This document shows positions 10,111-55,947 of a stretch of DNA of 64,000 nucleotides, in pieces. A program made the position numbers and the translations under genes. Position 1 is the stretch's first letter, and each line of letters starts with the position of its first letter. Where the stretch lies: contig OZ242029.1 of the NCBI GenBank assembly GCA_965205015.1, positions 1,440,001-1,504,000 on the forward strand, read 5' to 3'. The stretch is from Candidatus Poribacteria bacterium. Lineage in GTDB: Bacteria; Poribacteria; WGA-4E; WGA-3G. Below the pieces are notes generated by a model that ran no database searches, was not told the DNA's origin, and was given only the letters and a program-made list of their open reading frames with translations.

Positions 10111-13035
10111 TTGATGACAACCAACACCTTGCAAGACCTGATTGCACGTTGCCACCAACGGCACGAGAAACCCCTTAAGCAACGCAAGTCGATCGTAGGA
10201 CCCCTGCTTTATCAAGGACTTCCTTACCATTTCACAGTCTATTGTGCACACAGACACCCTGTGATGCTTCAAGACTTGGAGGCGGCAGATATTTCCTTTA
10301 TGCCGATAGGACGGGTCCCGGGCAACGATCGCCCGCCGCGAGCTTTTGGGGGCAAACGGTTCTTGAAACGCCAACAGGCGACAGACTGGGAAATCCTTTA
10401 CTGGCATAAGTCGTGGGGGGTTCAAGTGTATACGGGTATCCCCTCAGCACGCGACAGCGCGTCATGGCATGACATCGACTTTAAGTATGAAGCCATCTGC
10501 GCCGCACCCGATGCCGTTTTTGCCTGCGTTCAGGCACTCGTTGATGCCGTTGAGAACCCGTTGCTAACGCTGTCAAAGTCGGGGGGACTGCGTTTTTCTT
10601 GCAGGATACCGGGGTATCTACATCCGAACACCCAGCAGGCACGGCTGTATATTCATAAGCACACACCGACATCGGAGAATCCGCACCAGCACGACACGTA
10701 TCTTGAAATTTTGGGTGAGCAGGGATATAGTTGCTGGGATGCGCGCTATGAAATTCTGCTCGGAGATCTGTTAGATCCGCCTGTGATTTCCAAAGAGGTG
10801 CTTTTTCCGCCTATTGACGCGCTTCGCGCTGCACTTCACAAACCTATCCCCCAAAACGTCCAACACGAGGCGCACCGCCCCGAGGCACCATATTCTCTCG
10901 GATCGGGTAACCTTAACCTCGCGAAAGAGGCATTTTTCAAGCGCGGGTTTTCTTATGCCAGACAAGCGGATGGAATTCACTATTGGAACCAACGGGGGAG
11001 TGAGACGGGCAATACAGAGGTATCATTGTGGGAGCGCGAAGGGACCGTATGGATATGTGCGTCTACACCTGAAACCGGGGTGCCTACAGACGCAACGCCA
11101 ATCACAGATGTTTGGAACGATACCGGGATCCTGCCACCGATCCCCGAGACAGGGCTGCCTATAGACGATAAGGTGCTTGCCATTCGGGAAGGAAAACTCA
11201 GTCCACTCTCAATGAAACGTCCCAAGCCGGTGTTAGACAAGTTGAGACCTACCGAAAAGATGGATGAAACACGCGAAGAAATTTGGGTTCAGATGCAGCG
11301 TGCTATCGATGCGGGGGTGAGCGTTCTTGGATTTATTCCCGCGGTAAATTCAGAGAAAGACGGTGAAGTCGGCACCACCCTGCGTCGCAATGGCGCAATC
11401 TGTTTAAATGTGCCGGATGCTGCGCTTGCGGCAGGCATAGAACAATTTTTTCAAAAGCAAAATGTGGGATCAGACGCACAAATACGCCAAGATTACCGAT
11501 TGTTTTTGGACCCACAATACGCAAAAATAGCCGAACAAATTCTCGAAGTGCGCGATGGAACACAGCAGCTCTGTATCATCAATATCACGAGAGAGAATGA
11601 CCTGTTTCTTAAATGCGAACTCCCAAAAACGACCTTGGAGAACTGGATTGCCAACTATCAGGAGAGTGCCTTAGGATACCTTGCCACAGCCCTCCTGAAT
11701 GCAATCGAAATCAGAGATAAATCTCATGTCAATTTTATCAAACGACTTCGGACAGTGATACAGGCATTTCAATGGCGGGAAGCAGAGATCATCCAACAGA
11801 TGTGCCACGGCGAGGTGGCGACGGTTGAAAACATTCAAGAGTTTCCAACCGTTTCTTCGGATCCAAACTGGACGTTTTGGCATCAAGTCAAACGCTTCTT
11901 TGCACATTACACGCGGGACACTGATGCTCCGATGCGATGGAAGAACCAAGTGCTACGCTTCTGGGTGCCGCCGGTGCTGCATCCACGCATCAAACACCTT
12001 TTTGTCACCTCATCGGCGCTCTACGGCGAGCATCTCCGTCGAGCGTTCCTGGATGCGGAAACCGAGACCCTTCCTGCCCAACCCATGGCGTGGGTACCTG
12101 GAAACTGCGTTTTTCAGATTCGCACCGGTACGTATCCACGGCGGACACTCTTAGACCTCTACAACACTTGGGACGTTTTTGGAATTTCTGAAACCGGGCA
12201 GCAGATTTTTTCCAGGATCCAAACTGAAATAGAAAGGGATCCGAGTGTTAAGCACGGCATTCTCACCCACGATCAGGCAATTAAACAGTTGGGGAATATC
12301 GCGAAAAATGAGAATGTCTGTTTCCTGACGGGATTCCGAAACAGAAAAGGATTGGAAACCGCTTTTCAAGAAGCAGAAGTCATCTGGATAGTGGGCATGC
12401 CGGAAATGGGACCCCGCGCCATTTTACAGCGCACCCAGGTCCTGTTTGGAAACGACGAAGAACCGCTTTCTTATGAAATGGAACGTGAGTCCTACCGTTA
12501 CAAAGACGGGCGCGCCCAGAGCGTCTATGAAAAGGATATCGTCTCCATATTCACACAGGTTATAGCGTTAGCGCAACTCAACCGTTTGGCAAATAAGAAA
12601 GTTATGTTGATTACGGGTTTGCGAATTCCTGGGATTACCGACAGACCTGAAACCCACCTTTTTGACTGGGAAGATCTTGAGGTCGCCGGTCGCTTAGACA
12701 AACTTTCTGAGGCGATAGCGACACGCCAACGCTTTGAAAGAGAACGGGACAATCTAACGGCTGAATCCAGCAGAAAAGAGGTAGAGCGGGTTCTCGGATG
12801 CTCCCCAAGGCAGGCGAGTCGAGTGTTGCAAAAGTTAAGGGGCGGGAAAATTGTCCGAGCGCCGCTCCGCGAGCAGATCCTCGCGCTTCTTGCCGATGGA
12901 GAGAAAAAAACACCCGAACTCACCGCAGCGATTCAAGGACACCCAAAAGCAATAAATACAAAACTCACGCGCCTTGTCAACGCCGGTGAAATTGTAAAGG
13001 TGCGACGGGGCGTGTATAGGCTGCCAGAACATTAG
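10111..13035 (+). CDS. Large hypothetical DNA-acting protein: possible primase-polymerase-like N-domain, degenerate helicase-C-like region, C-terminal winged HTH
   Basis: HDIDFK and LSKSGGLRF motifs; EAEVIWIVGMP; ends LTRLVNAGEIVKVRRGVYRL (AbiEi-N-like wHTH). ORF is solid, domain calls are inferred. Confidence 0.55.
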   Translation: MMTTNTLQDLIARCHQRHEKPLKQRKSIVGPLLYQGLPYHFTVYCAHRHPVMLQDLEAADISFMPIGRVPGNDRPPRAFGGKRFLKRQQATDWEILYWHKSWGVQVYTGIPSARDSASWHDIDFKYEAICAAPDAVFACVQALVDAVENPLLTLSKSGGLRFSCRIPGYLHPNTQQARLYIHKHTPTSENPHQHDTYLEILGEQGYSCWDARYEILLGDLLDPPVISKEVLFPPIDALRAALHKPIPQNVQHEAHRPEAPYSLGSGNLNLAKEAFFKRGFSYARQADGIHYWNQRGSETGNTEVSLWEREGTVWICASTPETGVPTDATPITDVWNDTGILPPIPETGLPIDDKVLAIREGKLSPLSMKRPKPVLDKLRPTEKMDETREEIWVQMQRAIDAGVSVLGFIPAVNSEKDGEVGTTLRRNGAICLNVPDAALAAGIEQFFQKQNVGSDAQIRQDYRLFLDPQYAKIAEQILEVRDGTQQLCIINITRENDLFLKCELPKTTLENWIANYQESALGYLATALLNAIEIRDKSHVNFIKRLRTVIQAFQWREAEIIQQMCHGEVATVENIQEFPTVSSDPNWTFWHQVKRFFAHYTRDTDAPMRWKNQVLRFWVPPVLHPRIKHLFVTSSALYGEHLRRAFLDAETETLPAQPMAWVPGNCVFQIRTGTYPRRTLLDLYNTWDVFGISETGQQIFSRIQTEIERDPSVKHGILTHDQAIKQLGNIAKNENVCFLTGFRNRKGLETAFQEAEVIWIVGMPEMGPRAILQRTQVLFGNDEEPLSYEMERESYRYKDGRAQSVYEKDIVSIFTQVIALAQLNRLANKKVMLITGLRIPGITDRPETHLFDWEDLEVAGRLDKLSEAIATRQRFERERDNLTAESSRKEVERVLGCSPRQASRVLQKLRGGKIVRAPLREQILALLADGEKKTPELTAAIQGHPKAINTKLTRLVNAGEIVKVRRGVYRLPEH

Positions 13036-13609: not shown

Positions 13610-14428
13610 TTAAGTACCCCACGATTCAAGCCCAAGGAGTTTTTCTCCTAAAGGGGTCAACTCGGCTGTCTTACCCTGGTAATGCTCTTTCTCTTTTGTC
13701 TCTCTTCCGAGGCCCGTTAGACGTTCACGCCATCCCTCAATTCGGGACGCAGCATTGCCATTCTCCGGTGCAGGCGACATCGTGATGTATTGCGCCATGC
13801 GGGGACGCTCAGCGGAGTTCGGACTACTGCCGTGTGGCAATGCGCTATGCCAAATGACCAAGTCTCCAGCTTTCCCTGCGACCGGCACCGCCTCCGCTTG
13901 ATAGTCTCGCACGACTTCTTTCGGATTCGCGTCATCAGGTAAGCCGTTCAACCAGTTTTCCAACTTCCGATGAAAACCCGGAATACAGGTGAATGCGCCT
14001 TGATTCCCAGGGGTATCCGCCAGATACAAAACACCCTGCACCTTTAAGCGCACCGGCATATTGTCCAATGACATATCCCAATGCAAAAACGGACCCGTGA
14101 ACGTATAATCCGAACGTTCGGGTGGGTTCATACTCGCCCGATCAAAACTGACCCAGAGTTTCTCAGTACTCCAAATCTCAGAGAACGCCTGATGCACACG
14201 AGGATATTGACGGTTATCCCATAACGCTTGGTGTTGATAAATCTCCACCATGATGCTTCGGCGCGGTGGGTCGGGATACCAACTGTCCGGATCATCACGG
14301 TCCATTTCAAGAAAATCCCAGACAGCCTGTTCCGCGGCTCGGCAATTCTCAAGTGGCACCGCTTCCGGCACAACGACGTAACCGTTCTCTTCCCAAAATT
14401 CTAAGGCTTCTGCGTCAAAAACTGGCAT
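13610..14428 (-). CDS. Phytanoyl-CoA dioxygenase (PhyH) family Fe/2OG dioxygenase
   Basis: EENGYVVV, HWD, CIPGFH, GDLVIWHSALPHGS motifs; start set at ATG 14428 after AAGGAG. Confidence 0.85.
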   Translation of the reverse strand: MPVFDAEALEFWEENGYVVVPEAVPLENCRAAEQAVWDFLEMDRDDPDSWYPDPPRRSIMVEIYQHQALWDNRQYPRVHQAFSEIWSTEKLWVSFDRASMNPPERSDYTFTGPFLHWDMSLDNMPVRLKVQGVLYLADTPGNQGAFTCIPGFHRKLENWLNGLPDDANPKEVVRDYQAEAVPVAGKAGDLVIWHSALPHGSSPNSAERPRMAQYITMSPAPENGNAASRIEGWRERLTGLGRETKEKEHYQGKTAELTPLGEKLLGLESWGT

Positions 14429-14738
14429 GAGTCTCTCCTTAACGTGAGTTCGGTAAATCATAGTACATTTTTCTATAGACCTATTGCTCCGATGGAGCAA
14501 AAAACGACTTCGTGTGACGCGAGTTGGGTCACCCGTGTAGCATTCGTTAGATCGCAACTTGGGTTAACGTAGTTTTAAGAATACCACAAAAGATTACGCA
14601 AATCAAACTTTTCGATGACACTCGCGTGTCATCCAACGTTTGAAAAATTTTCTTGCAATCAATTGCGCCTTGTGCTAAAGTACGGATACTCCGATCTACA
14701 AAATTGAGTGAACATTGAGACGAAGGAGAAAGCTCACA

Positions 14739-15851: not shown

Positions 15852-16715
15852 ATGCTTGACGAACGCCATCTACAACATCAGATTACCGACGAACAACGTC
15901 GCGAGCTGAACGAAAACGGGTATTTTACTGTTCAAGACGCGCTTCCACCAGATCTCGTCGAACGGCTTGAGACCAAGGTGGACACCATCTACCAGAACCA
16001 TCTTGACGCTGGCTACGATCCATACAGCAAGCGTCAACTCACTGCGCATAACAACTTCTTCTATCCGAATTTTCTCGGCACAGATCAAGTTTTCGTGAAT
16101 ATTTTAGATTGGTATAAAACGTTCCCGAAAGTCTGGGGAATCTTGGGATGGAATATTTACTCCTATCATAGCCATTTCATCATCACGCCGCCGCGCCCCG
16201 ATGCGGTCCGCGGTAAACCCACCCCACTTGGCTGGCATCAGGACAGTGGACGCGTTAACTTCGAGATCGAAAGCTCACCGCGCCCCCGTCTTTCCATAAA
16301 AGTTGTCTATTGGCTATCCGACTGTTCCGAAACGGGACGTGGGAATTTCTATGTCATACCGGGAAGCCACCTCTGGGATAAACTCGATCGACCCGAAGAC
16401 GGTTCGATGCCAGACAGGGCAACACCCGTCTGCTGCAAGCCCGGGGATGCAGTCTTTTTCGACCGACGGATATGGCACGCCCGCAGCGAAAACGATTCAG
16501 ACATCACCCGAAAGGGACTTTTCTATGGGTACGGCTACCGATGGCTACGGAGTAAGGACGACATGACGATCCCCACAGAGATGTTTGAACGGAACGATCC
16601 GATTCGACAGCAACTCCTCGGGGGTGGCACCAACGCAAACGGGCATTTTACACCCAAGGATGTAGATGTACCGTTGAAGGTATGGCTTGAAGAAAAAGGG
16701 ATCATTTCTCACTGA
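15852..16715 (+). CDS. PhyH family dioxygenase
   Basis: GWHQD, VIPGSH, PGDAVFFDRRIWH. Confidence 0.85.
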   Translation: MLDERHLQHQITDEQRRELNENGYFTVQDALPPDLVERLETKVDTIYQNHLDAGYDPYSKRQLTAHNNFFYPNFLGTDQVFVNILDWYKTFPKVWGILGWNIYSYHSHFIITPPRPDAVRGKPTPLGWHQDSGRVNFEIESSPRPRLSIKVVYWLSDCSETGRGNFYVIPGSHLWDKLDRPEDGSMPDRATPVCCKPGDAVFFDRRIWHARSENDSDITRKGLFYGYGYRWLRSKDDMTIPTEMFERNDPIRQQLLGGGTNANGHFTPKDVDVPLKVWLEEKGIISH

Positions 16716-16767: not shown

Positions 16768-16796
16768 TTGACATCCACAGCAAAATAGCGTATAAT
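16768..16796 (+). promoter_or_regulatory. Perfect sigma70 promoter TTGACA-N17-TATAAT
   Basis: Exact consensus upstream of the GGAGG SD and ATG 16834. Confidence 0.8.
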
Positions 16797-16833
16797 TCCA
16801 TTAACTTAACGTATTTACCGGAGGCATAACGCG

Positions 16834-17844
16834 ATGTTTCAAACGCAGCTGAATGCGAGCGTCTGGGCTGTTATCCTCATAACAGCGATTTTGATTCCAG
16901 CAGCTTCAGGGGAGGAAGCAGTGACAACGCCAAACACACTAAAAGTAGGCATGGTCGCCCCAGATTTTACATTGAAAGATGAAGAAGGCGTTGAGCGAAG
17001 TCTCAGCGATTATTTAGGCAAGAAGAATATCGTTCTCGCTTTCTATCCAAAAGATTTTACAGGTGGCTGAACAACTGAACTTTGCTCGCTCCGGGATAAT
17101 TTGAGCGAGATAGAAGCGACCGGCAGTGTCCTGTTCGGGGTCAGTGTTGATTCTGTTGAATCGCACAAGCGGTTCCGGGCAGAACAGAAATTCGGATTTT
17201 CACTCTTAGCCGATACCGAATTTAAGGTGAGCCACCAGTATAGTGGTATCATTGAAAGTTTCAATGCCTCAAAACGAGTAACTTTCATCATTGATAAAGC
17301 CGGATACATCCGTGCCATTGATACGGATGTCAATGTCAAAACGCACGGTGAAGATGTCGCAGCCCTGCTTAAGGAAGTCTTACCGAAGATAGAGGTTGGG
17401 CAACCCGCCCCAGATTTTATTGCAGCCGATGGGACCGGTAAAACGCACCAACTCAGCGAATGGCATCAGGAAAAGAATGTCGTATTAGCCTTCTATCCAC
17501 GCGATTTTGGGCGTGGCTGAACGACTCAAGTTTGCTCACTCCGGGATGAGTCGAGTTATTTTGAGAAATACGATGCACAGATTTTTGGGATTACGTCGAA
17601 TGATGCGGCTTCGCACCAAAAATTTTCGGAAGAAAATCAGCTGAATTTCCCGCTCTTGGTAGACACCGGACGTAACCTCGCCCTCCTCTTTGGTGCGACG
17701 AATGCCCCAGACGGGAAGATTCAACGGTTAGCTGTTATCATTGATAAAACTGGAAAGATTCTTGAGATTGATAAAGAGGTCAACGCCAGTACGCACGGTG
17801 CGGACTTAGTTGATTTCTTTAAAAATTTGGAAACGTCAAATTAA
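16834..17844 (+). CDS. Secreted tandem BCP/PrxQ peroxiredoxin selenoprotein (336 aa; Sec at TGA 17068-17070 and 17518-17520)
   Basis: Three track ORFs share one frame: FYPKDFTGG-U-TTELCSLRD and FYPRDFGRG-U-TTQVCSLRD; each TGA sits at the peroxidatic Cys position and is followed by a hairpin. Confidence 0.9.
17085..17109 (+). promoter_or_regulatory. Candidate SECIS 1
   Basis: CTCGCTC-CGGGATAATTT-GAGCGAG starting 15 nt after the TGA. Confidence 0.7.
17534..17555 (+). promoter_or_regulatory. Candidate SECIS 2
   Basis: GCTCACTC-CGGGAT-GAGT(C)GAGT starting 14 nt after the TGA; same CGGGAT loop start as SECIS 1. Confidence 0.65.
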
Positions 17845-24684: not shown

Positions 24685-25020
24685 TCAGTCCCTGAGATCG
24701 ATGAATTCTTTGCCCTTCTTGATTGCCGTTTGGATCTTTTTATAGGCGACTGCTGCGGTTTGAACATCGGGGAATTCTGCGACCTTCAGTGGCAGTGAAA
24801 CGAATTTTTTATGGTGCCGGTCGTATATGGAGCCGAGTGGTTTTGCGAATAGGATTCTCCCGTGTCGATAGATCTCACACCCCGCGCAATCGGTAGAACC
24901 GAGATGGCTATGGATAACAAACTTCATGGCAACTTCCTCACTACCGACCTTTCGCACAACACGTCGCCTATTCTCCAGAACAGAAAACGTTTTAGGCATT
25001 TCGAGATCATAAATCACCAC
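24685..25020 (-). CDS. Hypothetical protein
   Basis: 111-aa ORF overlapping the upstream stop. Confidence 0.5.
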   Translation of the reverse strand: MVIYDLEMPKTFSVLENRRRVVRKVGSEEVAMKFVIHSHLGSTDCAGCEIYRHGRILFAKPLGSIYDRHHKKFVSLPLKVAEFPDVQTAAVAYKKIQTAIKKGKEFIDLRD

Positions 25021-25382
25021 TTGTGGATACGCGGCAGGAGCCTTCCCATGAAGATGCCGAATAAGGTGCCGACAGTAAAAAGAGCGACGTTCTCATAGAG
25101 TTCGCTGCCTCTCTTATCCCTTATGTCTTCACGAAGCTGTTGTAGTTCCTGCTCTTCTCTTGCCATTTCCCGTTTGCGACGCTGCCGTTCGACCGCCTTC
25201 TGTTCTCGCTTTGCCGTCTTTTCCACTCGCCTTGTTGATTTGAGTGCTTTTTTCTCTGCCCTGTCTACTTCCTTTGGGGTAGGTAGTTGCTCGGATGCCC
25301 AAGCGTCTCTGACACACAAACTCATCAGAACTGCAGAGACAATGACACAGACGAGCGTTGAGCGTGTCAATGGCTTTTGCAT
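25014..25382 (-). CDS. Hypothetical protein: signal peptide, coiled coil, C-terminal TM helix
   Basis: GGAGG SD; sequence features. Confidence 0.55.
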   Translation of the reverse strand: MQKPLTRSTLVCVIVSAVLMSLCVRDAWASEQLPTPKEVDRAEKKALKSTRRVEKTAKREQKAVERQRRKREMAREEQELQQLREDIRDKRGSELYENVALFTVGTLFGIFMGRLLPRIHKW

Positions 25383-27256: not shown

Positions 27257-30200
27257 CTATTTGCGTATGAGCATCTTGCGTGTTGCGGTAAAGTCGCCTG
27301 CCATCAAAGTATAGAAATAGACACCACTCGCGACACGTTCACCTTGTGCATTTCTGCCATCCCAATATGCCGCACGGCTCCGGGTCCGATATACCCCTGC
27401 GCGTTGATGCCCTAATGCCACCGTCCGCACCAATGCCCCGTTCACAGCATAGATACACAGTGTCACTTCCGCAGGTGTCGCCAACTGATAGGGTATCCAC
27501 GTCTCCGGGTTGAACGGGTTGGGATAATTCACCAATAGAGCTGTCTCTTCCGGCGGTAACGCCGTCAAGAGACGTTCCAGCCAATCAATTCCGCGCTGCA
27601 AACGCACATCAAGGCGCGGTAAACGATATGCTGCTGCCAGCCACTGCTCTATTGTAGCACGCGACGACAGTGCCGCAGAAGTGCCAAGCGAAGCCGAAGG
27701 CGCAGCTGTAGCGCCGCCCAACTCACCCGCTACCAATACCAGATCCTGAATATTAACGACACCATCACCGTTGACATCCGCCATATTCTCACCCGTCTCT
27801 CCCAAATGCGAGGAGACCAACACCAAATCCTGGACATTCACCACACCATCTTCATTGACATCTGCACTCGGCCCGGTGTTCTGAGAAGGTTCTGTGAGTG
27901 AGTCAAACTCTACTTCAATCCCTCTTGCCTGCATCGAAGGAATATGTGTGTTAATGGAAGCATCGCTCAGTGGGTTCCGTCGAAGGTACAATCCTGGGTG
28001 GTTTCCCCGTGTCCCTGTCAGGTTTAACCTTTCCAGTGGGGACACATCCGAAATATTATTACCAGTAAGTTCCAAGTACTTGAGTTGTTTGAGTTCAGCG
28101 AGGGCGGAGACATCCGAAATGTTATTCCACGGAAGTTCCAAATACCAGAGTTGTTTGAGTCCAGCAAGCGCGGATATATCCGTGATGCTATTATGCCCAA
28201 GATCGAGTTCCCTGAGATTGTGGGCATGTTGAAGACCGGTGAGATTTTTTATCCCGCCACTATAGACCTTAAGCTTTGTTAGATTCAGCAGTGTGTGCGT
28301 CGTGATGGAGCCCTCAATCTCTTGCCGGATTGCGGCTGCCAAATTGGTATCTGGTATAGAGACAACTTCGGGAGGTGGTAGTAGGGAGGTAACATCATCC
28401 ACTGGAAAACTTGTCCATGAGTATGGGAAATTTCCATGAACATCCATAACATGCAGGCTTACAGTCTCGTTTCCCGGTTTTAAAGCAGTGGTGACAAAAT
28501 CAAAAGTACGGCTTGGATTTCCGTTTAAGTGCTTACAAGTAATCACTTCCAGAGAACCCGTTGCGGATCCACTCAGCGTTGTTGTAAGCAGCTGCACCTG
28601 GTGAAGTCCATCTGGATCGGTTACCTTGAAACGAAAGCGGATAGCATTGGGGGGAGAGACAAGGCTCGGTGGGAGCATCTCAATTTTAGTTTTTGCGTTG
28701 GCAGTGGTTTGGTGGGTGTTGAAGTAGCGGTGGACATCCAACCACTCCGCAGCACATTGCGACAATTCCCTGCGGACAGTCCCGTAAGACATCATGTAAG
28801 TATTACTACGGAAATCGTGACGCAAGCCAAAGGCATGTCCAAGTTCATGAGCAACTATGCTAAAATCAAGACAATCGAGGCCGTAGATGTTCGCTGATCC
28901 GCTATGACTTCCGCCGCCCCCACTACCGCATATTTTACGAGAATAAAAACTACGATCCAACACAACAAGACGGATACGTTTTGAACCGCGAAGCTGCTCC
29001 CCAATTTCTGAGAATGGGTTGTTATCGTGATCCGCGTAATCCGCATCCTCAAATCTCCCGACAATATGATACACAACGGCATTCCCGTGTGCGTCGGTTT
29101 CAAACTGGAAAGTTTTCCTACCGAATCCGTGTGCCTTCATCTGATCGGCATAAAATTGTTGGACATCCTTTATCAATTGATCCATCTTTACGTTTATGTT
29201 CGGAGGCGGTTGACGGTCGCGTGGACGGAAATAGATGAGCCGGACCACATACGCCGACTGCGTCAAGTCATTATCGAAACGGACATCTACGCCTGCCCCC
29301 TGTAGCCACGGGATATGTGTGCTGACGGCGGTGTCGCTCAGAGGATTGCCTTGCAAATAGAGCATCTGTAGACTTGTTGACGCTCTTAACTGCGCTAAGT
29401 CTACAAGGAATGATACATTTGATATCCAATTGTCCCTGAGTGCCAAGGTTGTCAGTTGTGTCAAGCCTACCAACGGCGACACATCCGAGATACTGTTGTT
29501 GTTAAGCGATAGGATTGTGAGATTTGAGGCGTGCTGCAGCCCGGTGAGGTCGTGAATGCCCGCATCGTTCGCGATCAGTGCCCTCAACTTCAGCATATCC
29601 GCAGCAGTCAGTGTTGCATCGGGCGGTTTCCGAAGGGTTTCCGTTATCCGTGCGCGGAGGTTGTCATCAGGGACAGACACGGGTGTGCTGCGCGGGCGAG
29701 CCGTCGCCGTAAACTGAACGGGTTTTAAAACATGTGCGGCGGTCACACGGACAGTCGTCGTGCCGAGGGTGGGTCCCATCCTCAACTGTGTTGCCGCCTT
29801 ACCTGTGGTATCCGTTGTTACAGTTGTCGCACTGAGTTTGCCGCCGCCACCCGTGATAGTAAACCGCACCGGCACGCCTGCAAATGCAAGATTCTGCTCA
29901 TCCCGCACTTCCACGACGAACGGGAACGGCACTGTCGAATTGATTCCGCCGTGTTGCGCGATCCCTGACACTTTCACGAGCGTCGTCGGGACGCGAGTGT
30001 CAAATTCTACCTCAATCCCTTTCGCTTGCATGGCGGGAATATGGGTGTTGATGGAAACGTAACTCAGTGGATTTCCCTCAATATCCAATCCTGTGCGGTT
30101 CCACTCCGTCCCTGTCAGATTTAGTCCCACTATAGGGGACACATCTGAGATGTTATTCCAAACAAGCCCCAACCCAGTGAGTTGCTTGAGAGTAGAAAGA

Positions 30201-31015
30201 GGGGATACATCCGAAATATTATTACCCCCAAGCTCCAACCCAGTGAGTTGTGTGAGGGCAGCAAGCGGGGATAGGTCCGTGATGTTATTACTGGAAAGCC
30301 CCAACTCGGTGAGTTGTTTAAGGGTAGCGAGAGGAGATATATCTGAAATATTATTTCTCCCAAGCTTCAACCTTTTGAGTCGTTTAAGTTCGGCGAGGGT
30401 GGATATATCCGAGATGCTATTCACCCCAAGATCCAACCCAGTGAGTTGTTCGAGTCCAGCAAGCGGAGACACATCCGAGATGTTATTAAACCGCAGGTCT
30501 AACCCAGTGAGTTGTTTGAGGGCAGCAAGCGGAGATATGTCTGAGATGTTATTCCAAACAAGCCCCAACCCAGTGAGTTGCTTGAGAGTAGAAAGAGGGG
30601 ATACATCCGAAATATTATTACCCCCAAGTTCCAACCCAGTGAGTTGTGTGAGGGCAGCAAGCGGGGATAGGTCCGTGATGCTATTACTCCGAAGCACCAA
30701 CCCAGTGAGTTGTTTGAGAGCAGAAAGGGGGAATAGGTCCGATATTTCATTCGTGTTAAGGATCAATACCTCGAGGTTGCGTGCGTGTTCAAGACCGGTG
30801 AGATTTTTTATCCCGCGACCAGGGGCTTCAAGCCGCGTGAGCTTCAGCAGCGTGTGCGTCGTGATAGAATTGCCAATCTCTTGCCGGATTGCGGCTGCTA
30901 AATTCGCATCGGGTATGGACACAACTTTAGGCTGTCCCTGTTGTGCTTGTGAAAAGTTTGCGATTAACAGACCGAATAGAACCGCGATCCTAACAAATAG
31001 ACGTTTGACGTGCAT
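27257..31015 (-). CDS. Secreted internalin-like LRR protein with Ig-like domain, metzincin metallopeptidase, dockerin-like repeat and T9SS-CTD-like tail
   Basis: 22-aa LRRs; HELGHAFGLRH plus Met-turn (YMMSY); DVNEDGVVNVQDL / DVNGDGVVNIQDL; NYPNPFNPETWIPYQL. Confidence 0.9.
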   Translation of the reverse strand: MHVKRLFVRIAVLFGLLIANFSQAQQGQPKVVSIPDANLAAAIRQEIGNSITTHTLLKLTRLEAPGRGIKNLTGLEHARNLEVLILNTNEISDLFPLSALKQLTGLVLRSNSITDLSPLAALTQLTGLELGGNNISDVSPLSTLKQLTGLGLVWNNISDISPLAALKQLTGLDLRFNNISDVSPLAGLEQLTGLDLGVNSISDISTLAELKRLKRLKLGRNNISDISPLATLKQLTELGLSSNNITDLSPLAALTQLTGLELGGNNISDVSPLSTLKQLTGLGLVWNNISDVSPIVGLNLTGTEWNRTGLDIEGNPLSYVSINTHIPAMQAKGIEVEFDTRVPTTLVKVSGIAQHGGINSTVPFPFVVEVRDEQNLAFAGVPVRFTITGGGGKLSATTVTTDTTGKAATQLRMGPTLGTTTVRVTAAHVLKPVQFTATARPRSTPVSVPDDNLRARITETLRKPPDATLTAADMLKLRALIANDAGIHDLTGLQHASNLTILSLNNNSISDVSPLVGLTQLTTLALRDNWISNVSFLVDLAQLRASTSLQMLYLQGNPLSDTAVSTHIPWLQGAGVDVRFDNDLTQSAYVVRLIYFRPRDRQPPPNINVKMDQLIKDVQQFYADQMKAHGFGRKTFQFETDAHGNAVVYHIVGRFEDADYADHDNNPFSEIGEQLRGSKRIRLVVLDRSFYSRKICGSGGGGSHSGSANIYGLDCLDFSIVAHELGHAFGLRHDFRSNTYMMSYGTVRRELSQCAAEWLDVHRYFNTHQTTANAKTKIEMLPPSLVSPPNAIRFRFKVTDPDGLHQVQLLTTTLSGSATGSLEVITCKHLNGNPSRTFDFVTTALKPGNETVSLHVMDVHGNFPYSWTSFPVDDVTSLLPPPEVVSIPDTNLAAAIRQEIEGSITTHTLLNLTKLKVYSGGIKNLTGLQHAHNLRELDLGHNSITDISALAGLKQLWYLELPWNNISDVSALAELKQLKYLELTGNNISDVSPLERLNLTGTRGNHPGLYLRRNPLSDASINTHIPSMQARGIEVEFDSLTEPSQNTGPSADVNEDGVVNVQDLVLVSSHLGETGENMADVNGDGVVNIQDLVLVAGELGGATAAPSASLGTSAALSSRATIEQWLAAAYRLPRLDVRLQRGIDWLERLLTALPPEETALLVNYPNPFNPETWIPYQLATPAEVTLCIYAVNGALVRTVALGHQRAGVYRTRSRAAYWDGRNAQGERVASGVYFYTLMAGDFTATRKMLIRK

Positions 31016-35173: not shown

Positions 35174-36676
35174 ATGACGATGAGTCAAATTAGAGATATG
35201 CAGCAGCACCCGAACGTCGAAATCTCAGTTAGAAATTTCGGACCGATTGCAGAAGCGAACATTGACCTGCGTCCATTGACGGTATTTATCGGTCCCAGCA
35301 ATACCGGCAAGACCTATTTTTCCACGCAAATCTACACACTACATAGCATTTTCAACGGCTTTTCAGAGTCGGGTTTTTTATCTCCTTTTGGACCAACGAG
35401 TTTCATGGAACTGATGACAGGTAACAATCCAGAACGTGGAATCCTGTTAGATCCTGCTATTGCGGAAGAAGAGATCCAAGAGTTGGCGAAACTGGTAAAA
35501 GCGAGTGAAGGACCGATCAAATTATCAGATTTGACTACGAGAATGCAAAATCAGTTACAGGATATTATCAAGGAATCGAAGGTTTTCAGAGAACCGCTAC
35601 AAGAAGGACTCAAAAATTGCTTCGACCTGAATTCTATTTTGCCTCTAATAAGGTTGACAGAGACACAGCATAATGAAATGTTAGTCTCTCTGAAAGTCAG
35701 TAAAGGAAATAAGGAATGTTGGAAAATCAATCTAAAGGTTTCCGAGTCGGGGATTGTTGTTGACGGGTCAATCGGTGAGGGTATACACCTATTTCCAGAA
35801 GGATGGTCGATGTCCATAAGTGGGTTAGCAGAAAATGAACAGAGAGTTTCTTTTAACCATCCTTGGCCGAATTCACTAAAAAGAAATCGGTATTATTTGC
35901 CAGCTGCTCGGAGCGGCATTATGCAGAGCCATCGAGTTATAATGAGTTCCCTTGTTAAACGCACTACTCGAGTCGGTTTAGAACGTTTCCCAGAGGTGCC
36001 AACCTTGCCAGGAGTGATAGCGGAATTCATGCAACAAATCATTCTTTACGAAGAAGACAGGGTCCCTAACGGAGAAATACAGCACATTGCAGATGTATTA
36101 GAAACTGATGTACTTGCTGGGCAAATACATGTGAAACCATCACCAAGTGGATATCCGGACTTCCGTTACCGTCCATGCGGGACAAAAGAGGATATGCGTC
36201 TAAGTCAAGCCTCATCAATGGTATCTGAACTTGCCCCTCTGGCCCTGTTTATTCGAGGTCTCATCCGCCCTGGCGATACACTTATCATTGAAGAGCCCGA
36301 AGCACATTTGCACCCGGGTGCCCAGACAGAAATCGCCGCTACCTTAGGACGCTTGATACGCGCCGGAGTCCGCGTAGTGGTAACAACGCATAGCGATTGG
36401 TTACTCAAGGAAATCGGGAATCTGATTCGTGAAGGCGTTCTTATGGAAAAAGGTGAATTGCGGAAGAAATCTAACGGACCAGAAAGTTGGCTACTGCCAA
36501 ATGAGGTCGGGGCGTGGCAATTCCACAGGGAAAAACCTGTGGAACCACTACACTTTACGAATCTTGATGGAATAGATCCACCGGATTACGAGGAATTAGC
36601 ACTGAATCTGTATAACCGCTCAGCCGGACTCCACAACCAACTCGAGGTAACGGAAGGCGATAATACCAGTGAATGA
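35174..36676 (+). CDS. ABC-type AAA_15/AAA_21 ATPase
   Basis: NFGPI, GPSNTGKT, YLPAARSG, ASSMVSEL, IIEEPEAHLHP, TTHSD. Confidence 0.85.
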   Translation: MTMSQIRDMQQHPNVEISVRNFGPIAEANIDLRPLTVFIGPSNTGKTYFSTQIYTLHSIFNGFSESGFLSPFGPTSFMELMTGNNPERGILLDPAIAEEEIQELAKLVKASEGPIKLSDLTTRMQNQLQDIIKESKVFREPLQEGLKNCFDLNSILPLIRLTETQHNEMLVSLKVSKGNKECWKINLKVSESGIVVDGSIGEGIHLFPEGWSMSISGLAENEQRVSFNHPWPNSLKRNRYYLPAARSGIMQSHRVIMSSLVKRTTRVGLERFPEVPTLPGVIAEFMQQIILYEEDRVPNGEIQHIADVLETDVLAGQIHVKPSPSGYPDFRYRPCGTKEDMRLSQASSMVSELAPLALFIRGLIRPGDTLIIEEPEAHLHPGAQTEIAATLGRLIRAGVRVVVTTHSDWLLKEIGNLIREGVLMEKGELRKKSNGPESWLLPNEVGAWQFHREKPVEPLHFTNLDGIDPPDYEELALNLYNRSAGLHNQLEVTEGDNTSE

Positions 36677-38381: not shown

Positions 38382-39803
38382 TTAAGTCAATGTTGCAGTA
38401 CGCAGGATAATCCGATCCTCTGTCCAGTTATCGCGATACCACGTACACGCTTCAAAGGTATCGTTAATCGCATTCATGCGCTGCTGTAAGACGATTCGGA
38501 ATTGATCTCGAAGTCTGGTCGATTCGGGTTCGTCCATCAGATTACGGGTTTGGAACGGATCCGCGACATTATCAAAGAGTTTCTCACTTCGATCTGGACG
38601 GTGGATGGCGTAGGTATATCGCTTTGTCCGGAGGGCGCGCCACTCATAACCATCTTCCCACTTGGCAGTACATCCCATTCCTTGCATGAACGCCGCATCC
38701 GGTTCATCAGCGGATTGGTGAAACGGGACGTTGCTGAAATCTCTCCCTTCAACAGTTTCTGGAATCGGCAGATCCATCATAGATAACAAGGTCGGCATGA
38801 TGTCGGGTGTGTTCAGGCATGCATCTGAGACATGCCTCTTCGGAATTTGTCCGTGCAACCGAACAAGGAACGGAACGCGCACTGCCTCTTCATAAAAGAT
38901 GTTCTTTGCGCGGCGACCCTGTGCACCAAACATCTCGCCGTGATCGGAAGTGAACACAAAGATCGTATCGTCTCGCAATCCGAGATCATCAACGGTTTGT
39001 AGCAACCGCCCAATATTCCGATCCAAGTTGGCAGTCATGGCGTAATAGACACGCATCCACTCAGGCAATTCGGCACGTTCTGCGGGGGACATAATTGCCC
39101 ATGTATCGCCGTAAGGGTCATTTTCATCGCGATAATTTGGTGGTAACGGGAAATCAACATCCTGGAACATCTCATAATCGGCAGATGGAACGTTGTCTTG
39201 CGTCCACGGGTCGTGCGGTGTCCCGATTGAAAGAAAAAGCGCGAACGGATCATCACTTGTTGCAGCCCGTTGCAGATAATCAATTGCCATATCGGTTTGA
39301 CCGTCCGGTTCATAACCCGGTAGCACGATCTTTTCAGGCGAATCCCTGTGGTAATATGTGTCAAAGTACAAATGATGAAAATTGTATGCTGACCACTCAC
39401 CCTCAAAACCGAGCCGATGTGGTCCCGGCGGAATGTAAGAGTTCTCGGGGTCGTTGTGTCTCCCCAATTGATTTGCCCACAAATGCCATTTCCCGATGTA
39501 ACTTGTCTGGTAACCGTTGCGATGTAAAACATGCCCGAAACAGTCATGATTCGGGTTCATGCGAAGCTCATTAATCGCCATACCGGTACTACTTGCGTAT
39601 TTGCCGGTGAAGAGTGAGGCACGATACGGAGCACACATCGGGCTACCGGAAACAGCGTTGCAGAAATTTGTACTCTCCGTAGCGAGCTGATCGATATTAG
39701 GTGTACGCGCGCGGGCATCGCCAGCGTAGCCACACGACTGGTAGCGGAGCTGATCGGCGAAAACATAGACCAGATTCGGTCGCTTTCCAACTGAACGAGA
39801 CAT
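38382..39803 (-). CDS. Sulfatase (Cys-type)
   Basis: CAPYRASLFTG, GKWH, SDHG. Confidence 0.92.
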   Translation of the reverse strand: MSRSVGKRPNLVYVFADQLRYQSCGYAGDARARTPNIDQLATESTNFCNAVSGSPMCAPYRASLFTGKYASSTGMAINELRMNPNHDCFGHVLHRNGYQTSYIGKWHLWANQLGRHNDPENSYIPPGPHRLGFEGEWSAYNFHHLYFDTYYHRDSPEKIVLPGYEPDGQTDMAIDYLQRAATSDDPFALFLSIGTPHDPWTQDNVPSADYEMFQDVDFPLPPNYRDENDPYGDTWAIMSPAERAELPEWMRVYYAMTANLDRNIGRLLQTVDDLGLRDDTIFVFTSDHGEMFGAQGRRAKNIFYEEAVRVPFLVRLHGQIPKRHVSDACLNTPDIMPTLLSMMDLPIPETVEGRDFSNVPFHQSADEPDAAFMQGMGCTAKWEDGYEWRALRTKRYTYAIHRPDRSEKLFDNVADPFQTRNLMDEPESTRLRDQFRIVLQQRMNAINDTFEACTWYRDNWTEDRIILRTATLT

Positions 39804-40135: not shown

Positions 40136-41569
40136 TCACTTATCAGATGGCTTTCTCCATTGCCCTCCAGTGACCTGATCTATCAGCATACGCGCTTTTT
40201 GACTCGCTCGAACCTGCTTCTCGATTTCAACAGGATCCCACTTCGCTAACAATTGTGCTTCAAGCTCTTGGCAGATTCCTTGATATGCCGCTTCATCGGC
40301 GAGATTCCGAAATTCGTTCGGATCTTCGGCAATATCGTAAAGTTCTGGTGCATCGCCGAGGCTGTAGTTGAATTTGTACCGTCCTTTCCGCAGCATCGCC
40401 ATGGGGCGTTCAACACCGTGCGCTAGGTATTCAGAAAACGCGAGATCCTTCCAATCACTTGCAGTATCCTGCACTAAAGGCATCAGACTATCCCCATCCA
40501 GTTGACTCAAGAACTGTGCCCCTGCAATATCAACGAGCGTCGCTGTTAGATCTACGAGGGACACGATCTCATCAACGCATTTGCCTGCGGATAAATGGTC
40601 GGGAAACATAATCTGTAAGGGGATGCGAGCGGATGCCTCGTAGAAATTCGATTTGCGCCACATGCCGTGTTCGCCGTTCATCTCACCGTGGTCGCTGGTA
40701 TAGACGACGACCGTATTCTCCAACTGATCGGTCTCCTCAAGTGCCTTGAGCAAGTTGCCAATCTTTTCGTCAAGGTAGGTAATCAACCCATAATAGCCCG
40801 CCCTTCCGCGACGCACCAGTTCTTCGGGGAAGTCAACACACCCGAACATACGCCGCATCCGTTGGTAGACGGGATGTTGGTTTTCGAGGTGTCCCTCTGG
40901 AATGTTGGGTAGATCGATCTCATCAAGTGGATAGAGGTCCCAAAACCGCTGTGGCACGATGAGCGGGAAATGCGGCGCGATAAACGAGACATTGAGTGCC
41001 CACGGCTGTTCGTGGCGTACCGGATCTCGGAGATACGCCAAAGCCTCTGTTTCCGCGAGGTCATCGACTTCAATTTCCTCCATTGTTCCCGGACGTGCCT
41101 GTGCGAGCCCTTGCCAGGGACGCGGTGCCGGTGGTGTGCCGTTATTCCAGTCCGTCAGTCCGTGCTGTCGTTCTGCGTGCAGATCGCGGGCGAGTTGTGC
41201 CCGAAATCCGTGGAGCTGATCCATACCACCGAAGTGCTGTTTCCCAGAGAGCACGACATCGTAGCCTTCTGCCCGCAGGAGATGTGCCCATGTGACAGCA
41301 TCTGGACGCAGGGGCGCGGCGTTGTCCCATGCACCGATTTTGTGGATATATCGACCCGTCATAAATGACATCCGAGATGGCATACAGAGCGGTGAATTGC
41401 AGTAGGCATTGGTGAAGGTGACACCCTCTTCAGCGAGCCTGTCCATGTGCGGCGTTTGGACGAGTGAGTGTCCGTAGGGACCGCTGTACATCGGGGCATG
41501 TTCGTCGGACATGATGATAAGGAGATTGGGTTTCTGTTTTGAGGGCATAGTGTTTCTACATGGACTCAA
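40136..41569 (-). CDS. Sulfatase, choline-sulfatase-like
   Basis: CMPSRMSFMTG, GKQH, SDHGEM..EHGMW.K..FYE. Confidence 0.9.
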   Translation of the reverse strand: MSPCRNTMPSKQKPNLLIIMSDEHAPMYSGPYGHSLVQTPHMDRLAEEGVTFTNAYCNSPLCMPSRMSFMTGRYIHKIGAWDNAAPLRPDAVTWAHLLRAEGYDVVLSGKQHFGGMDQLHGFRAQLARDLHAERQHGLTDWNNGTPPAPRPWQGLAQARPGTMEEIEVDDLAETEALAYLRDPVRHEQPWALNVSFIAPHFPLIVPQRFWDLYPLDEIDLPNIPEGHLENQHPVYQRMRRMFGCVDFPEELVRRGRAGYYGLITYLDEKIGNLLKALEETDQLENTVVVYTSDHGEMNGEHGMWRKSNFYEASARIPLQIMFPDHLSAGKCVDEIVSLVDLTATLVDIAGAQFLSQLDGDSLMPLVQDTASDWKDLAFSEYLAHGVERPMAMLRKGRYKFNYSLGDAPELYDIAEDPNEFRNLADEAAYQGICQELEAQLLAKWDPVEIEKQVRASQKARMLIDQVTGGQWRKPSDK

Positions 41570-44179: not shown

Positions 44180-45691
44180 ATGCCTGAAACCAGACCTAAT
44201 ATCCTACTTATTACCAGCGATCAGCAGCATTGGAATACTTTGGGCTGCCTCAACCCCGAAATACAGACCCCGCACTTAGACACATTGGCGCAACAAGGCA
44301 CGCTTTTCAATAGAGCCTATTGCCCGAACCCTACCTGCACACCGACGCGCGCATCTATTATCACTGGAAAATACCCGAGCCAACACGGTGCGTGGTCGCT
44401 CGGCACGAAACTCTCTGAAGATGAACATACCGTCGGTGAGGATTTCACGGATGCTGGCTATCGGACTGCCCTCGTCGGAAAAGCACATTTTCAACCGCTC
44501 CACGGGACAGAGGAATTCCCGTCTCTCGAATCCTACCCGATTCTCCAAGATTTGGACTTTTGGCGCAGTTTCAACGAGCCGTTTTACGGGTTTGAGCATG
44601 TCGAACTCGCACGCAACCACGCCGACGAAGCACACGTCGGACAACACTATGCGATCTGGATGGAAGAGAACGGCTGTACCAATTGGCGCGACTATTTCGC
44701 ACCGCCGACAGGGAACGCTCGCGGGCAATACCGCAAGTGGCACATCCCAGAAGAATACCATTACGATACCTGGATTGCGGAACGTACCAATGCGCTCATG
44801 GAAACGTATCAACAGAACGGTGAGAACTTTTTCCTCTGGGCGAGTTTCTTCGATCCGCATCCGAAATATCTTGTTCCAGAGCCGTGGGATACGATGTACG
44901 ACCCAGAGGCGTTGACGGTGCCCTCCGTAACCGAGGGAGAACACGATAACAACCCACCGCATTTCCAGCTAACACAACAAGAAAAGCCGGATTTCTCCGC
45001 TTGGCGTGAAAGTGGGAAGGGGGTACACGGCTTCAACTCACATCTACGCGATCGGGACGAACTCGCTAAAGACATTGCTGTCTATTACGGCATGGTGAGC
45101 CTGATGGATAAGTATATCGGGAAAATCTTGGCGAAACTGGACGAATTAGGGCTTGCAGAGAACACGTTGGTCGTGTTCACTTCCGATCATGGGCATTTTT
45201 ACGGACAACACGGACTCGTCGCAAAGGGAGCATTCCACTACGAGGATGTCATCCGAGTGCCGTTTATCGCGCGGTATCCAGGGGTCGTGCCTGCGGGGAA
45301 ACACTCCGAGGCATTGCAGACGTTGGTAGACTTAGCACCCTCATTTCTCAGCGCTGCTGGCATTGACATTCCTCTTCCAATGACAGGCGTAGATCAGATG
45401 CCGGTCTGGTCAGGACAAGCAGAACAGGCACGCGACCATATCCTCGTTGAAAATCATCATGAACCGACAACGGTGCACGTCAAAACCTATGTTGACGATC
45501 GTTATAAGATTACCGTCTACTATAACAGAGATTATGGCGAGTTATTTGATTTGCAAGCGGATCCTGGAGAAGTCAACAACCTATGGAATTCCGCTGAGCA
45601 TGCGGCACTGAAGGCGGATCTGGTGATGAAACTGTTGTTCGCGGAGATGGGGAAAGAACCGTTATGGATGCCGCGAACTTCGGGGGCATAA
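44180..45691 (+). CDS. Sulfatase (Cys-type)
   Basis: CTPTRASIITG, GKAH, SDHG. Confidence 0.92.
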   Translation: MPETRPNILLITSDQQHWNTLGCLNPEIQTPHLDTLAQQGTLFNRAYCPNPTCTPTRASIITGKYPSQHGAWSLGTKLSEDEHTVGEDFTDAGYRTALVGKAHFQPLHGTEEFPSLESYPILQDLDFWRSFNEPFYGFEHVELARNHADEAHVGQHYAIWMEENGCTNWRDYFAPPTGNARGQYRKWHIPEEYHYDTWIAERTNALMETYQQNGENFFLWASFFDPHPKYLVPEPWDTMYDPEALTVPSVTEGEHDNNPPHFQLTQQEKPDFSAWRESGKGVHGFNSHLRDRDELAKDIAVYYGMVSLMDKYIGKILAKLDELGLAENTLVVFTSDHGHFYGQHGLVAKGAFHYEDVIRVPFIARYPGVVPAGKHSEALQTLVDLAPSFLSAAGIDIPLPMTGVDQMPVWSGQAEQARDHILVENHHEPTTVHVKTYVDDRYKITVYYNRDYGELFDLQADPGEVNNLWNSAEHAALKADLVMKLLFAEMGKEPLWMPRTSGA

Positions 45692-45692
45692 A

Positions 45693-46508
45693 TCAATACC
45701 GCCGTTTCCAGTGCCAACTGTCGCTTCCTGAAATGAGCGGACGGATGTCTTCGGGCAATGTCTCAATAAATTCAGGACTGACTTCGTTGCCGGGCCATTC
45801 GCGTACCATCGGTGGTGTGTACCCGGAGATGAGGATGACACGCTCTTTATCGCTACGGATGGCAGTTGTGCTGTGAATCAACGCCTCGGCAAAAAGAAGG
45901 ACGGACCCCGCGGATGCTTCGACTTGGTAGATGAGTTTGTCGTCAGAGAGTGCCGCTTCGATCATTTCTTTGTGATCCCACGTTAGGCGATGGCTTCCGG
46001 GTATAACGCACGTTCCACCATCGTCTGGACCGACATCGGTGAGGTAGGCGAGCGTTTTTACGAAGATACAGTGGAACTTGTTCTGTTCCACATAAGTGCC
46101 CCACCCGTGTTGCGTCCCGCGATGAAATCCTGTCGGGTTATAGCGGCGTTTATAGAGGTCGTCCAATTCTGTCTCAGGGTTACGACTATTAATGATCGCT
46201 TCGGTCTCTTCAAGGCGTACTGCCCCTCCTACCACCTCTTCAACCAACGGCACGAGTTGTGGGTGCGCGGCGTATTCTAAGAGTGCTGGGTCATATTCAA
46301 CGAGATTGCCGAAAAGGATATGGTGTTCTCCGCCGGGACGGGCATAGACACGCTTGGCATCCCGATTTTCGTCGGCTTTCATCCTGTAGAGGGCACCTTT
46401 CATGCGTGCAATTTCATCGTCGTTTAGGACGTTCTCTAACAAGACAAAACCGTAGATGTCAAAATGGAGTCTTTGTGCTGGCGTGAGGCGAACCGTTTCA
46501 TTGCGCAT
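45693..46508 (-). CDS. PhyH family dioxygenase
   Basis: FDIYGFVLL, VIPGSH, AGSVLLFAEALIH. Confidence 0.8.
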   Translation of the reverse strand: MRNETVRLTPAQRLHFDIYGFVLLENVLNDDEIARMKGALYRMKADENRDAKRVYARPGGEHHILFGNLVEYDPALLEYAAHPQLVPLVEEVVGGAVRLEETEAIINSRNPETELDDLYKRRYNPTGFHRGTQHGWGTYVEQNKFHCIFVKTLAYLTDVGPDDGGTCVIPGSHRLTWDHKEMIEAALSDDKLIYQVEASAGSVLLFAEALIHSTTAIRSDKERVILISGYTPPMVREWPGNEVSPEFIETLPEDIRPLISGSDSWHWKRRY

Positions 46509-54293: not shown

Positions 54294-54403
54294 TTTTTCC
54301 TACAGATTAGACAAGATTTTCTTGAAATTGATTGTAACCCCTTTTTAAACTGCCCTAAACTTTTCAGTAGCAACTATTGGGACATCTATCCTACAGAAAA
54401 ATC

Positions 54404-55582: not shown

Positions 55583-55947
55583 TGTGTTTTTTTCTCTCGA
55601 TGTTCTGAATCGTAGATCAGAAATTTAATGATTTCTTCCGCGGTCTTTGGCGTAAGCCCTGAACCCGGTTTCCGCATCATCTTATAGACATATTTTCGCC
55701 ATTCCGCTGCGGCAAAAGTCGAATTAATCGGGCGTGCAACGGTATGGCATCGGCTACATTTACGGGCAAAAAGTTCGTAAGCCTCCTGCATCTTGGGCGG
55801 ATAGGTGGTAACATCAATAAAGTTGGGTCCCTTATCCGCGGGATAGGTTTTAGGTACCGCCCGCGGGGCGCGCAAGGCGTAAATCATCCCAATCCCAACG
55901 AGGAGGATAACCCCCAAGACAGTAAACCAGACGATTGTGTTTTGCAT
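55579..55947 (-). CDS. Membrane-anchored mono-heme c-type cytochrome
   Basis: N-terminal TM, CSRCH, W..YVYKMMRKPGS with distal Met candidates; ATGA overlap with the selenoprotein gene. Confidence 0.85.
   Translation of the reverse strand: MQNTIVWFTVLGVILLVGIGMIYALRAPRAVPKTYPADKGPNFIDVTTYPPKMQEAYELFARKCSRCHTVARPINSTFAAAEWRKYVYKMMRKPGSGLTPKTAEEIIKFLIYDSEHREKKTQ

Follow-up and report, generated by a model that had tools for sequence, protein, structure and literature searches.

Does a UGA codon that interrupts a peroxiredoxin (Prx) frame twice end the protein, or does it encode selenocysteine (Sec, U)? The question is raised by a 64,000-nucleotide stretch of a Candidatus Poribacteria genome (contig OZ242029.1, positions 1,440,001 to 1,504,000; hereafter the window), in which the frame 16834-17844 of the forward strand is interrupted solely by TGA 17068-17070 (residue 79) and TGA 17518-17520 (residue 229). 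This agrees with the first-pass annotation of the locus, in which three fragments of one frame, cut only by these two TGAs, had been joined. Under translation table 11, the frame falls apart into open reading frames (ORFs) of 78, 139, and 62 amino acids (aa), and in public records the gene is stored as separate proteins of 78, 139, and 64-67 aa, named “redoxin domain-containing protein”, “peroxiredoxin”, or “hypothetical protein”, bearing out the expectation that standard gene callers would split it in three. The comparisons described here indicate that the gene is a genuine and conserved di-Sec selenoprotein, a tandem form within the known Sec-Prx family (COG1225, TxxU), and that selenocysteine is very probably used in each of its two fused domains. 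In all, we consider it highly probable that one gene gives rise to a 336-residue protein, consisting of a hydrophobic export or anchor segment followed by two BCP/PrxQ domains with a peroxidatic Sec each, whose UGAs would be recoded through selenocysteine insertion sequences (SECIS) of their own.

The read-through protein is composed of two AhpC-TSA/Redoxin domains in the Pfam search (E 7.9e-69). Its best curated match was NCBIfam PRK09437, the BCP-type thiol peroxidase, with 180.5 bits against a cut-off of 140, and the closest solved chain by sequence was that of Bcp1 (3drn, E 5.3e-26). An AlphaFold2 model built on 33 sequences reached a mean predicted local distance difference test score (pLDDT) of 89.1 and a predicted template modelling score (pTM) of 0.85, with residues 1-33 below a pLDDT of 50. 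Each domain matched the fold of solved BCP-type peroxiredoxins, Bcp1 (3drn) coming first with a template modelling score of 0.91, followed by BcpB and AhpE, the range being 0.84-0.91. Both TGAs were found to lie at the peroxidatic Cys of the BCP/PrxQ motif with the resolving Cys kept, as the annotation had claimed (YPKDFTGG-U-TTELC and YPRDFGRG-U-TTQVC). C84 and C234 are the only cysteines of the protein, and each stands five residues after U. Domain 1 has the full PxxxTxxU motif (P72-K-D-F-T76-G-G-U79), whereas the motif of domain 2 is P222-R-D-F-G226-R-G-U229, without the Thr; the replacement noted earlier (FYPRDFGRG) was, thus, read again as Gly226. In an alignment of 33 rows (A5), U79, U229, R148, R298, and P222 are invariant, P72 is nearly so (Leu in one row, L060), and C234 is kept in 32 of the 33 rows. 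From the alignment with 3drn and the Prx literature, we take R148 and R298 (RxTF[IV]ID) to be the catalytic arginines.

The positions of the two TGAs are strictly maintained among the relatives of the gene. A collection of species-representative genomes yielded 213 stretches coding for a relative, and 80 of these were kept (77 titled Poribacteria and three “uncultured bacterium”); a metagenome collection contributed 80 further loci. The codons were read from script-made alignments of every locus with the window protein; TGA was scored as Cys, and such alignments are thereby slightly favored. The loci were divided into tandem (L001-L103) and more distant ones (L104-L160). TGA was present at both sites in 99 of the 103 tandem loci, and the remaining four (L050, L091, L093, and L100) are partial, with TGA at the single site covered. 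Neither TAA or TAG, named in the annotation as evidence to the contrary, nor any sense codon was found at the covered sites of these loci, whose protein identity goes down to 48% and in which no further internal break was seen. In eight of them the alignment reached one TAA or TAG at the 3′ end: L052, L060, L078, and L097 were rechecked and contain no TAA or TAG inside the gene, the alignment having overrun the stop codon of the gene, and this probably applies to the others, L077, L089, L098, and L103, as well. As far as seen, the distribution is limited to Poribacteria and contigs from marine or sponge metagenomes.

Among the 57 more distant loci, which are mostly single-domain and include many short contigs, 48 have TGA and nine have TGC at site 1, so that Sec/Cys pairs exist, and P0023, a more distant tandem protein, has Cys at both sites. 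The pairing of Cys and TGA, for which the annotation had proposed that homologs be searched, therefore appears outside the close tandem relatives, which carry TGA throughout. The 17 full-length tandem homologs in the databases have W at site 1 in every case and at site 2 in 16 cases; these tryptophans stem from a gene-calling model that reads TGA by code 4.

Each TGA is followed by a hairpin. The bacterial SECIS (bSECIS) model, as given in the legend of Fig. 2A of PMC13188914, calls for an apical loop of 3-9 nt, an upper stem of 4-16 bp, a UGA-to-loop distance of 16-37 nt, and a minimum free energy of -7.5 kcal/mol or lower; according to the same legend, a G stands within the first two positions of the loop, and G or U usually comes next. 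At both sites of the window, CGGGAU occupies bases 25-30 when the T of TGA is taken as base 1, which places the loop 21 nt after the UGA, directly downstream as in the model searched by bSECISearch; again as in that model, loop position 2 is a G with another G after it. Loop positions 1, 2, 4, and 5 (C25, G26, G28, and A29) are invariant in the 83 and 79 sequences compared, and position 3 is G or U. The earlier description of a hairpin after each TGA with a loop starting CGGGAU, thus, stands, with the correction that the unpaired spacer between UGA and hairpin measures 13-14 nt, not 14-15. Loop G and spacing agree with the model at both sites, and the stems comprise 4+4 bp with a 6-nt loop at site 2 and 7 bp at site 1.

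Base-pairing of hairpin 2 is maintained in 99.4% of 632 cells (79 distinct sequences), with compensatory changes from C-G to U-A in three sequences and from G-U or A-U to U-A in five. Its covariation score was reached by none of 500 shuffles, and shifting the partner strand by 1-3 columns left only 26-39% of the cells paired. With the lower stem of the window (CUCAAG/UUUGAG), hairpin 2 folds with -14.4 kcal/mol; this stem is not conserved in relatives and was dropped from the element. Hairpin 1 folds with -10.7 kcal/mol, a value equaled by 3 of 200 shuffles. The register seen in the window is paired in 87.1% of the cells (83 sequences), with two compensatory pairs, and G-C replaces C-G in six sequences. 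At this site, the register is shifted in the window's clade (7-bp stem, 11-nt loop), while more distant clades have the same register as at site 2. The relative L062 showed -9.6 and -11.5 kcal/mol at its two sites.

The machinery for Sec insertion was searched for in the five closest Poribacteria genomes, whose copies of the gene are 93-96% identical. All four genes that the annotation had asked to be confirmed were present in each: selA (594-601 bits), selB (346-351 bits), selC, the tRNA-Sec gene, which adjoins selB and whose anticodon TCA was confirmed in the three loci scanned (ARAGORN, tRNA-SeC), and selD, with an in-frame TGA of its own at the N-terminal active site. In the selD genes of L168 and L169, the TGA stands at codon 11 of the match (...KCAG-U-ASK...), and CUCGCUCCGGG occurs within the next 60 nt. 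These 11 bases are common to the selD SECIS and to the arm and loop start of the site-1 hairpin in the window (17085-17095). Since selD is an unrelated selenoprotein gene, the shared string would lend independent support to binding of these hairpins by the SelB of Poribacteria, and it may represent a lineage-specific flavor of SECIS. The motif TGA-N9-21-CTCCGGG-N1-4-GAG matched six times in one complete Poribacteria genome, compared with one match for the reversed control. Only selD is recognizable among the six, and the Prx sites of that genome are missed due to CGU at site 2 and the long loop at site 1; the scan gives no count of the selenoproteome.

The genomes G001, G003, G006, G007, and G008 contain 13-23 AhpC-TSA matches each, several with one in-frame TGA. 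In G001 and G003, six such matches with an in-frame TGA were counted each, two of which belong to the tandem gene, and about four more genes for Sec-containing Prx or Prx-like proteins, thus, appear to be present in Poribacteria. A second Sec gene was also sought in the window, as frames joined only by TGA with at least 60 codons on either side. The candidate at 54389-55624 (-) turned out to be two separate ORFs that share a frame by chance, and the remaining candidates are antisense to long ORFs.

The following mechanism is proposed. The UGAs at 17068 and 17518 would be read as Sec because each is served by a hairpin inside the coding sequence (CDS), whose apical loop, CGGGAU..., acts as a bacterial SECIS and would be bound by SelB carrying Sec-tRNA(Sec). 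The selenolate of U79 or U229 is predicted to attack the hydroperoxide, giving a selenenic acid, which C84 or C234, five residues downstream, would resolve into an intramolecular selenenylsulfide; a thioredoxin-fold reductant would then reopen the selenenylsulfide. The N-terminal segment is a plausible signal peptide, and the protein is probably exported. The hydrophobic character of this segment is kept among relatives while its sequence varies.

Several observations weigh against this scheme or parts of it. None of selA, selB, selC, and selD is found in the window, where a tRNA scan returned nothing, and the evidence for the machinery comes from the genomes of relatives. No Rfam model matched the hairpins, and no Rfam match was obtained anywhere in the window. 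When held against the bSECIS model, loop G, spacing, and stem length fit, but the loop length of site 1 and the core energy of site 2 are borderline: in the window's clade the former reaches 11 nt (5 nt if two G-U pairs form), where the model allows 3-9 nt, and the latter, at -7.0 kcal/mol (z -0.86), is slightly weaker than the published -7.5. Conservation of the hairpins is partly imposed by the conserved peptide S-L-R-D, and synonymous differences were, therefore, measured. Their mean drops after each TGA, in favor of the hairpins, to 0.21 over codons 80-93 and 0.15 over codons 230-243, compared with 0.42 elsewhere (66 distinct gapless genes); equally low values were found in 14 and 3, respectively, of 288 segments of 14 codons. 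Also in favor, the gene is covered with 88-99% likeness by contigs assembled from the RNA libraries of four studies on sponges or marine samples; one of these metatranscriptome contigs, of 2537 nt, spans 16984-17824, thereby bridging both TGAs, and extends into the gene that follows. Such contigs show cover only, and not strand, ends, expression level, or Sec insertion; assembled and derived from related strains, they are weak evidence for transcription and no proof of it. C84 occurs mainly in close relatives of the window, with N, Q, R, S, or E in the other rows of A5. The n-region of the window lacks a positive charge, with Q5 where the closest relatives carry R or K. Peroxidase activity is less certain for domain 2, whose active-site Thr is missing in the window's clade. 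The different chemistry that the annotation suspected in domain 2 would follow from this Thr-to-Gly change, which is derived within a single clade and is not shared by the family as a whole.

Apart from these points, in codons 21-30 at the end of the leader (16894-16923) the synonymous difference is 0.08, which is below that of the SECIS sites and may reflect few comparable pairs or a constraint at the RNA level.

The alternatives concern, on the one hand, the meaning of the TGAs and, on the other, the roles and location of the two domains. If the TGAs were true stops, the locus would be a decayed pseudogene or three small independent genes, as the three table 11 ORFs and the three proteins of the public records would have it. 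It is hard to see how TGA would then be kept precisely where the two catalytic residues stand, in 103 of 103 loci as far as the sites are covered, or why the whole frame should be under purifying selection at identities down to 48%; the 78-aa piece, moreover, stops one residue short of the active site and cannot fold alone. We regard this explanation as exceedingly improbable. The full-length proteins with W at the sites, issued by gene callers, would accord with UGA standing for one of the ordinary amino acids (Trp, Gly, or Cys), through a deviant code or read-through independent of SECIS. Yet TGA terminates nine of the 41 long ORFs of the window, several of them with full-length Pfam matches, from which it follows that the organism uses the standard code. 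A Trp or Gly at the peroxidatic position of a Prx gives a dead enzyme, and both a complete Sec system, in the relatives, and matching hairpins are present. Decoding as an ordinary amino acid is, thus, very improbable.

For domain 2, one may think of a Sec/Cys redox relay, in which U229 and C234 recycle or feed domain 1 instead of forming a second peroxidase, the loss of Thr marking this specialization. Gly226 is found in 17 of the 33 members aligned, all from the window's clade, C234 is far better kept than C84, so that domain 1 of most relatives lacks a resolving Cys of its own, and the pTM of the model suggests fixed packing of the two domains. The other 16 members, however, retain the domain-2 Thr, and P222 and R298 are kept in all 33, which suggests that a complete peroxidase site was present in the ancestral domain 2. 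Loss of the Thr may also simply be tolerated because of the low pKa of Sec. The relay is judged rather unlikely. Just as speculative is a wider proposal, in which the two selenium centers are not redundant, U229-C234 being a built-in selenenylsulfide relay that recycles domain 1, and the CUCCGGG loop motif shared by the Prx and selD SECIS elements constitutes a lineage-specific SelB code of Poribacteria; if true, the built-in relay would allow a peroxidase to function after export from the cytoplasm with no thioredoxin dedicated to it. As to location, the protein might be cytoplasmic or anchored in the membrane facing inward, with the N-terminus serving as an anchor or the true start lying further downstream. 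The uncharged n-region would fit such a location, as would the neighborhood of the gene: no thioredoxin, DsbD, or CcdA gene that could be a redox partner by synteny is found nearby, and four loci of other clades show unrelated neighbors, with no gene for a periplasmic reductant among them. Against it stand the ATG at 16834, which is kept together with its GGAGG in the related loci inspected, the R or K at position 5 of the closest relatives, the small-residue motif (A-A-S or A-L-A) after the hydrophobic core, and the leader of the Cys/Cys tandem P0023, which is likewise hydrophobic. A location inside the cell is, on balance, unlikely, and the preferred reading remains an exported or anchored protein with two Sec-dependent peroxidase domains.

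The two domains would have arisen by an old internal duplication. In a quick LG+G4 tree of 89 rows, from which 14 near-duplicate rows of A5 were left out, the domain-1 rows and the domain-2 rows group separately as clades (SH-aLRT 99 and 100) whose internal branching runs in parallel, which points to one old duplication followed by co-evolution. The tree does not settle how the domain-1 clade, the domain-2 clade, and a single-domain soil group are related, and a duplication inside Poribacteria can, therefore, not be asserted. P0023 is an independent duplication. The single-domain metagenome relatives (L104-L160) form a widespread group with the motif YPKDFTGG-U-T, and in most of those inspected a hairpin loop CGGGA lies 21 nt after the UGA. 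The SECIS was, thus, probably inherited from a single-domain Sec-PrxQ ancestor and copied with the domain. In L105-L111, a second domain may be present in degenerate form, in which Tyr or Ile occupies site 2.

Relatives of the enzyme have been described. The Sec-containing Prx family (COG1225/Bcp, PF00578, TxxU) is represented by 43 Sargasso Sea sequences in the relevant passage of PMC1088965, and is tabulated with one Sec per protein in the table passages of a 2026 review (PMC13188914). The window protein shares with this family the domain type, the position of Sec, the PxxxTxxU motif in domain 1, and a SECIS inside the CDS; it differs in its two fused domains, two Sec, two SECIS, and hydrophobic leader, and its clade differs in the exchange of Thr for Gly in domain 2. 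The Cys-type BCP/PrxQ enzymes (S. solfataricus Bcp1 3drn, M. tuberculosis BcpB 5epf, and E. coli-type BCP) have the same fold and a resolving Cys five residues on, but they are single-domain and cytoplasmic and use Cys instead of Sec. PrxU of Eubacterium acidaminophilum is a selenocysteine peroxiredoxin (Sohling et al. 2001, as cited in PMC13188914), and likewise has Sec at the peroxidatic position. Membership in this group was rejected, as the NF040737 model gave 115.4 bits against a cut-off of 270; PrxU is a member of another Prx subfamily.

Among the bacterial entries with two Sec residues in the same table passages are “double selenoprotein” fusions and Prx-like UxxC/UxxU proteins, the latter with one or two Sec. 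They also require recoding of more than one UGA in one bacterial mRNA, whereas the two Sec of the window protein would come from duplication of the whole catalytic domain with its SECIS. These passages hold no entry for a two-Sec peroxiredoxin of the TxxU type, and a full-text search, with subscription journals and supplements outside its reach, returned no description of a tandem or two-Sec peroxiredoxin. The enzyme type is, thus, known, and the doubled two-Sec form is new relative to the review passages cited.

Table 1. Coordinates of the predicted di-Sec peroxiredoxin gene, its parts, and adjoining features in the window.
Feature	Position	Strand	Basis
Whole CDS, 336 residues, with predicted U79 and U229; stop TAA 17842-17844	16834..17844	+	frame read and full-length relatives
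UGA 1, predicted Sec79, peroxidatic position of domain 1	17068..17070	+	TGA in 100/100 tandem loci covering the site
UGA 2, predicted Sec229, peroxidatic position of domain 2	17518..17520	+	TGA in 102/102 tandem loci covering the site
BCP/PrxQ domain 1, residues 34-184: P72, T76, U79, C84, R148	16933..17385	+	Pfam AhpC-TSA, residues 38-161
BCP/PrxQ domain 2, residues 185-336: P222, G226 (not Thr), U229, C234, R298	17386..17841	+	Pfam Redoxin, residues 188-318
GGG codon for Gly226, Thr slot of the PxxxTxxC motif	17509..17511	+	sequence and alignment A5 (33 rows)
Hydrophobic N-terminal segment, residues 1-33, probable signal peptide or membrane anchor	16834..16932	+	sequence, pLDDT <50
SECIS-like hairpin 1: 7-bp stem CUCGCUC/GAGCGAG, loop CGGGAUAAUUU	17085..17109	+	folding and covariation
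SECIS-like hairpin 2: 4+4 bp stem with one bulged C, loop CGGGAU	17534..17556	+	folding and covariation
Sigma-70-type promoter: TTGACA (16768-16773), 17-nt spacer, TATAAT (16791-16796)	16768..16796	+	12/12 consensus matches
Ribosome-binding site GGAGG, 9 nt 5′ of the ATG	16820..16824	+	read in the sequence
Next gene, multi-pass membrane protein with weak PAP2 likeness, beginning directly at the Prx stop codon	17845..18462	+	

The perfect TTGACA-N17-TATAAT promoter claimed for the gene was confirmed (Table 1), and 49 of 72 related loci have a perfect TTGACA-N16-18-TATAAT no more than 110 nt upstream of the gene; in the related loci inspected, the position of the ribosome-binding site is likewise taken by GGAGG or GAGG. 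The consensus promoter and strong ribosome-binding site plausibly offset the yield that would be lost at two successive recoding events. The PAP2 match of the downstream gene (E 2.1e-4, 21.5 bits) lies below the cut-off of 27.2. A PAP2-like gene follows in 67 of 96 evaluable loci and is absent from more distant clades, its synteny being limited to the clade with Gly226 in domain 2; it is a possible operon partner, not part of the enzyme. In a metatranscriptome contig of a related strain (run X1), 18 bases between the gene and the next gene (17824-17843) are replaced by 136 other letters. The PhyH-family gene upstream is syntenic in 59 of 89 loci.

Elsewhere, the window contains four genes of PhyH-family dioxygenases (13610-14557, 15852-16715, 45693-46508, and 48230-49012) and three sulfatase genes (38382-39803, 40136-41569, and 44180-45691). 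A 1251-aa protein encoded at 27257-31015 (-), with many leucine-rich repeats and dockerin, Big_1, FlgD-Ig, and weak metallopeptidase matches, looks like a eukaryote-like repeat surface protein. Two genes are possibly defense-related: 10111-13035 (+) encodes 974 aa, with a C-terminal AbiEi_4 piece as the only Pfam match, and 35174-36676 (+) a 500-aa AAA_15/AAA_21 (AbiEii-like) ATPase. The short ORF 25014-25382 (-), with an OrfB_IS605 transposase match below threshold (27.1 bits, cut-off 30.5), is probably a transposase remnant.

The tandem gene shows a whole catalytic domain duplicated together with its recoding signal, and the pair is kept in every Poribacteria locus examined. As a clean natural example of a bacterial mRNA in which UGA would be recoded to Sec twice in succession, with an in-frame SECIS for either event, it would be useful for studying the efficiency of serial recoding and its recognition by SelB. 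Enrichment of selA and selB in sponge-symbiont bins is reported in a passage of PMC5649159, and a di-Sec Prx would add to the picture of sponge symbionts investing in selenium. As the gene is split or mistranslated in public databases, the redox inventories of these symbionts undercount it.

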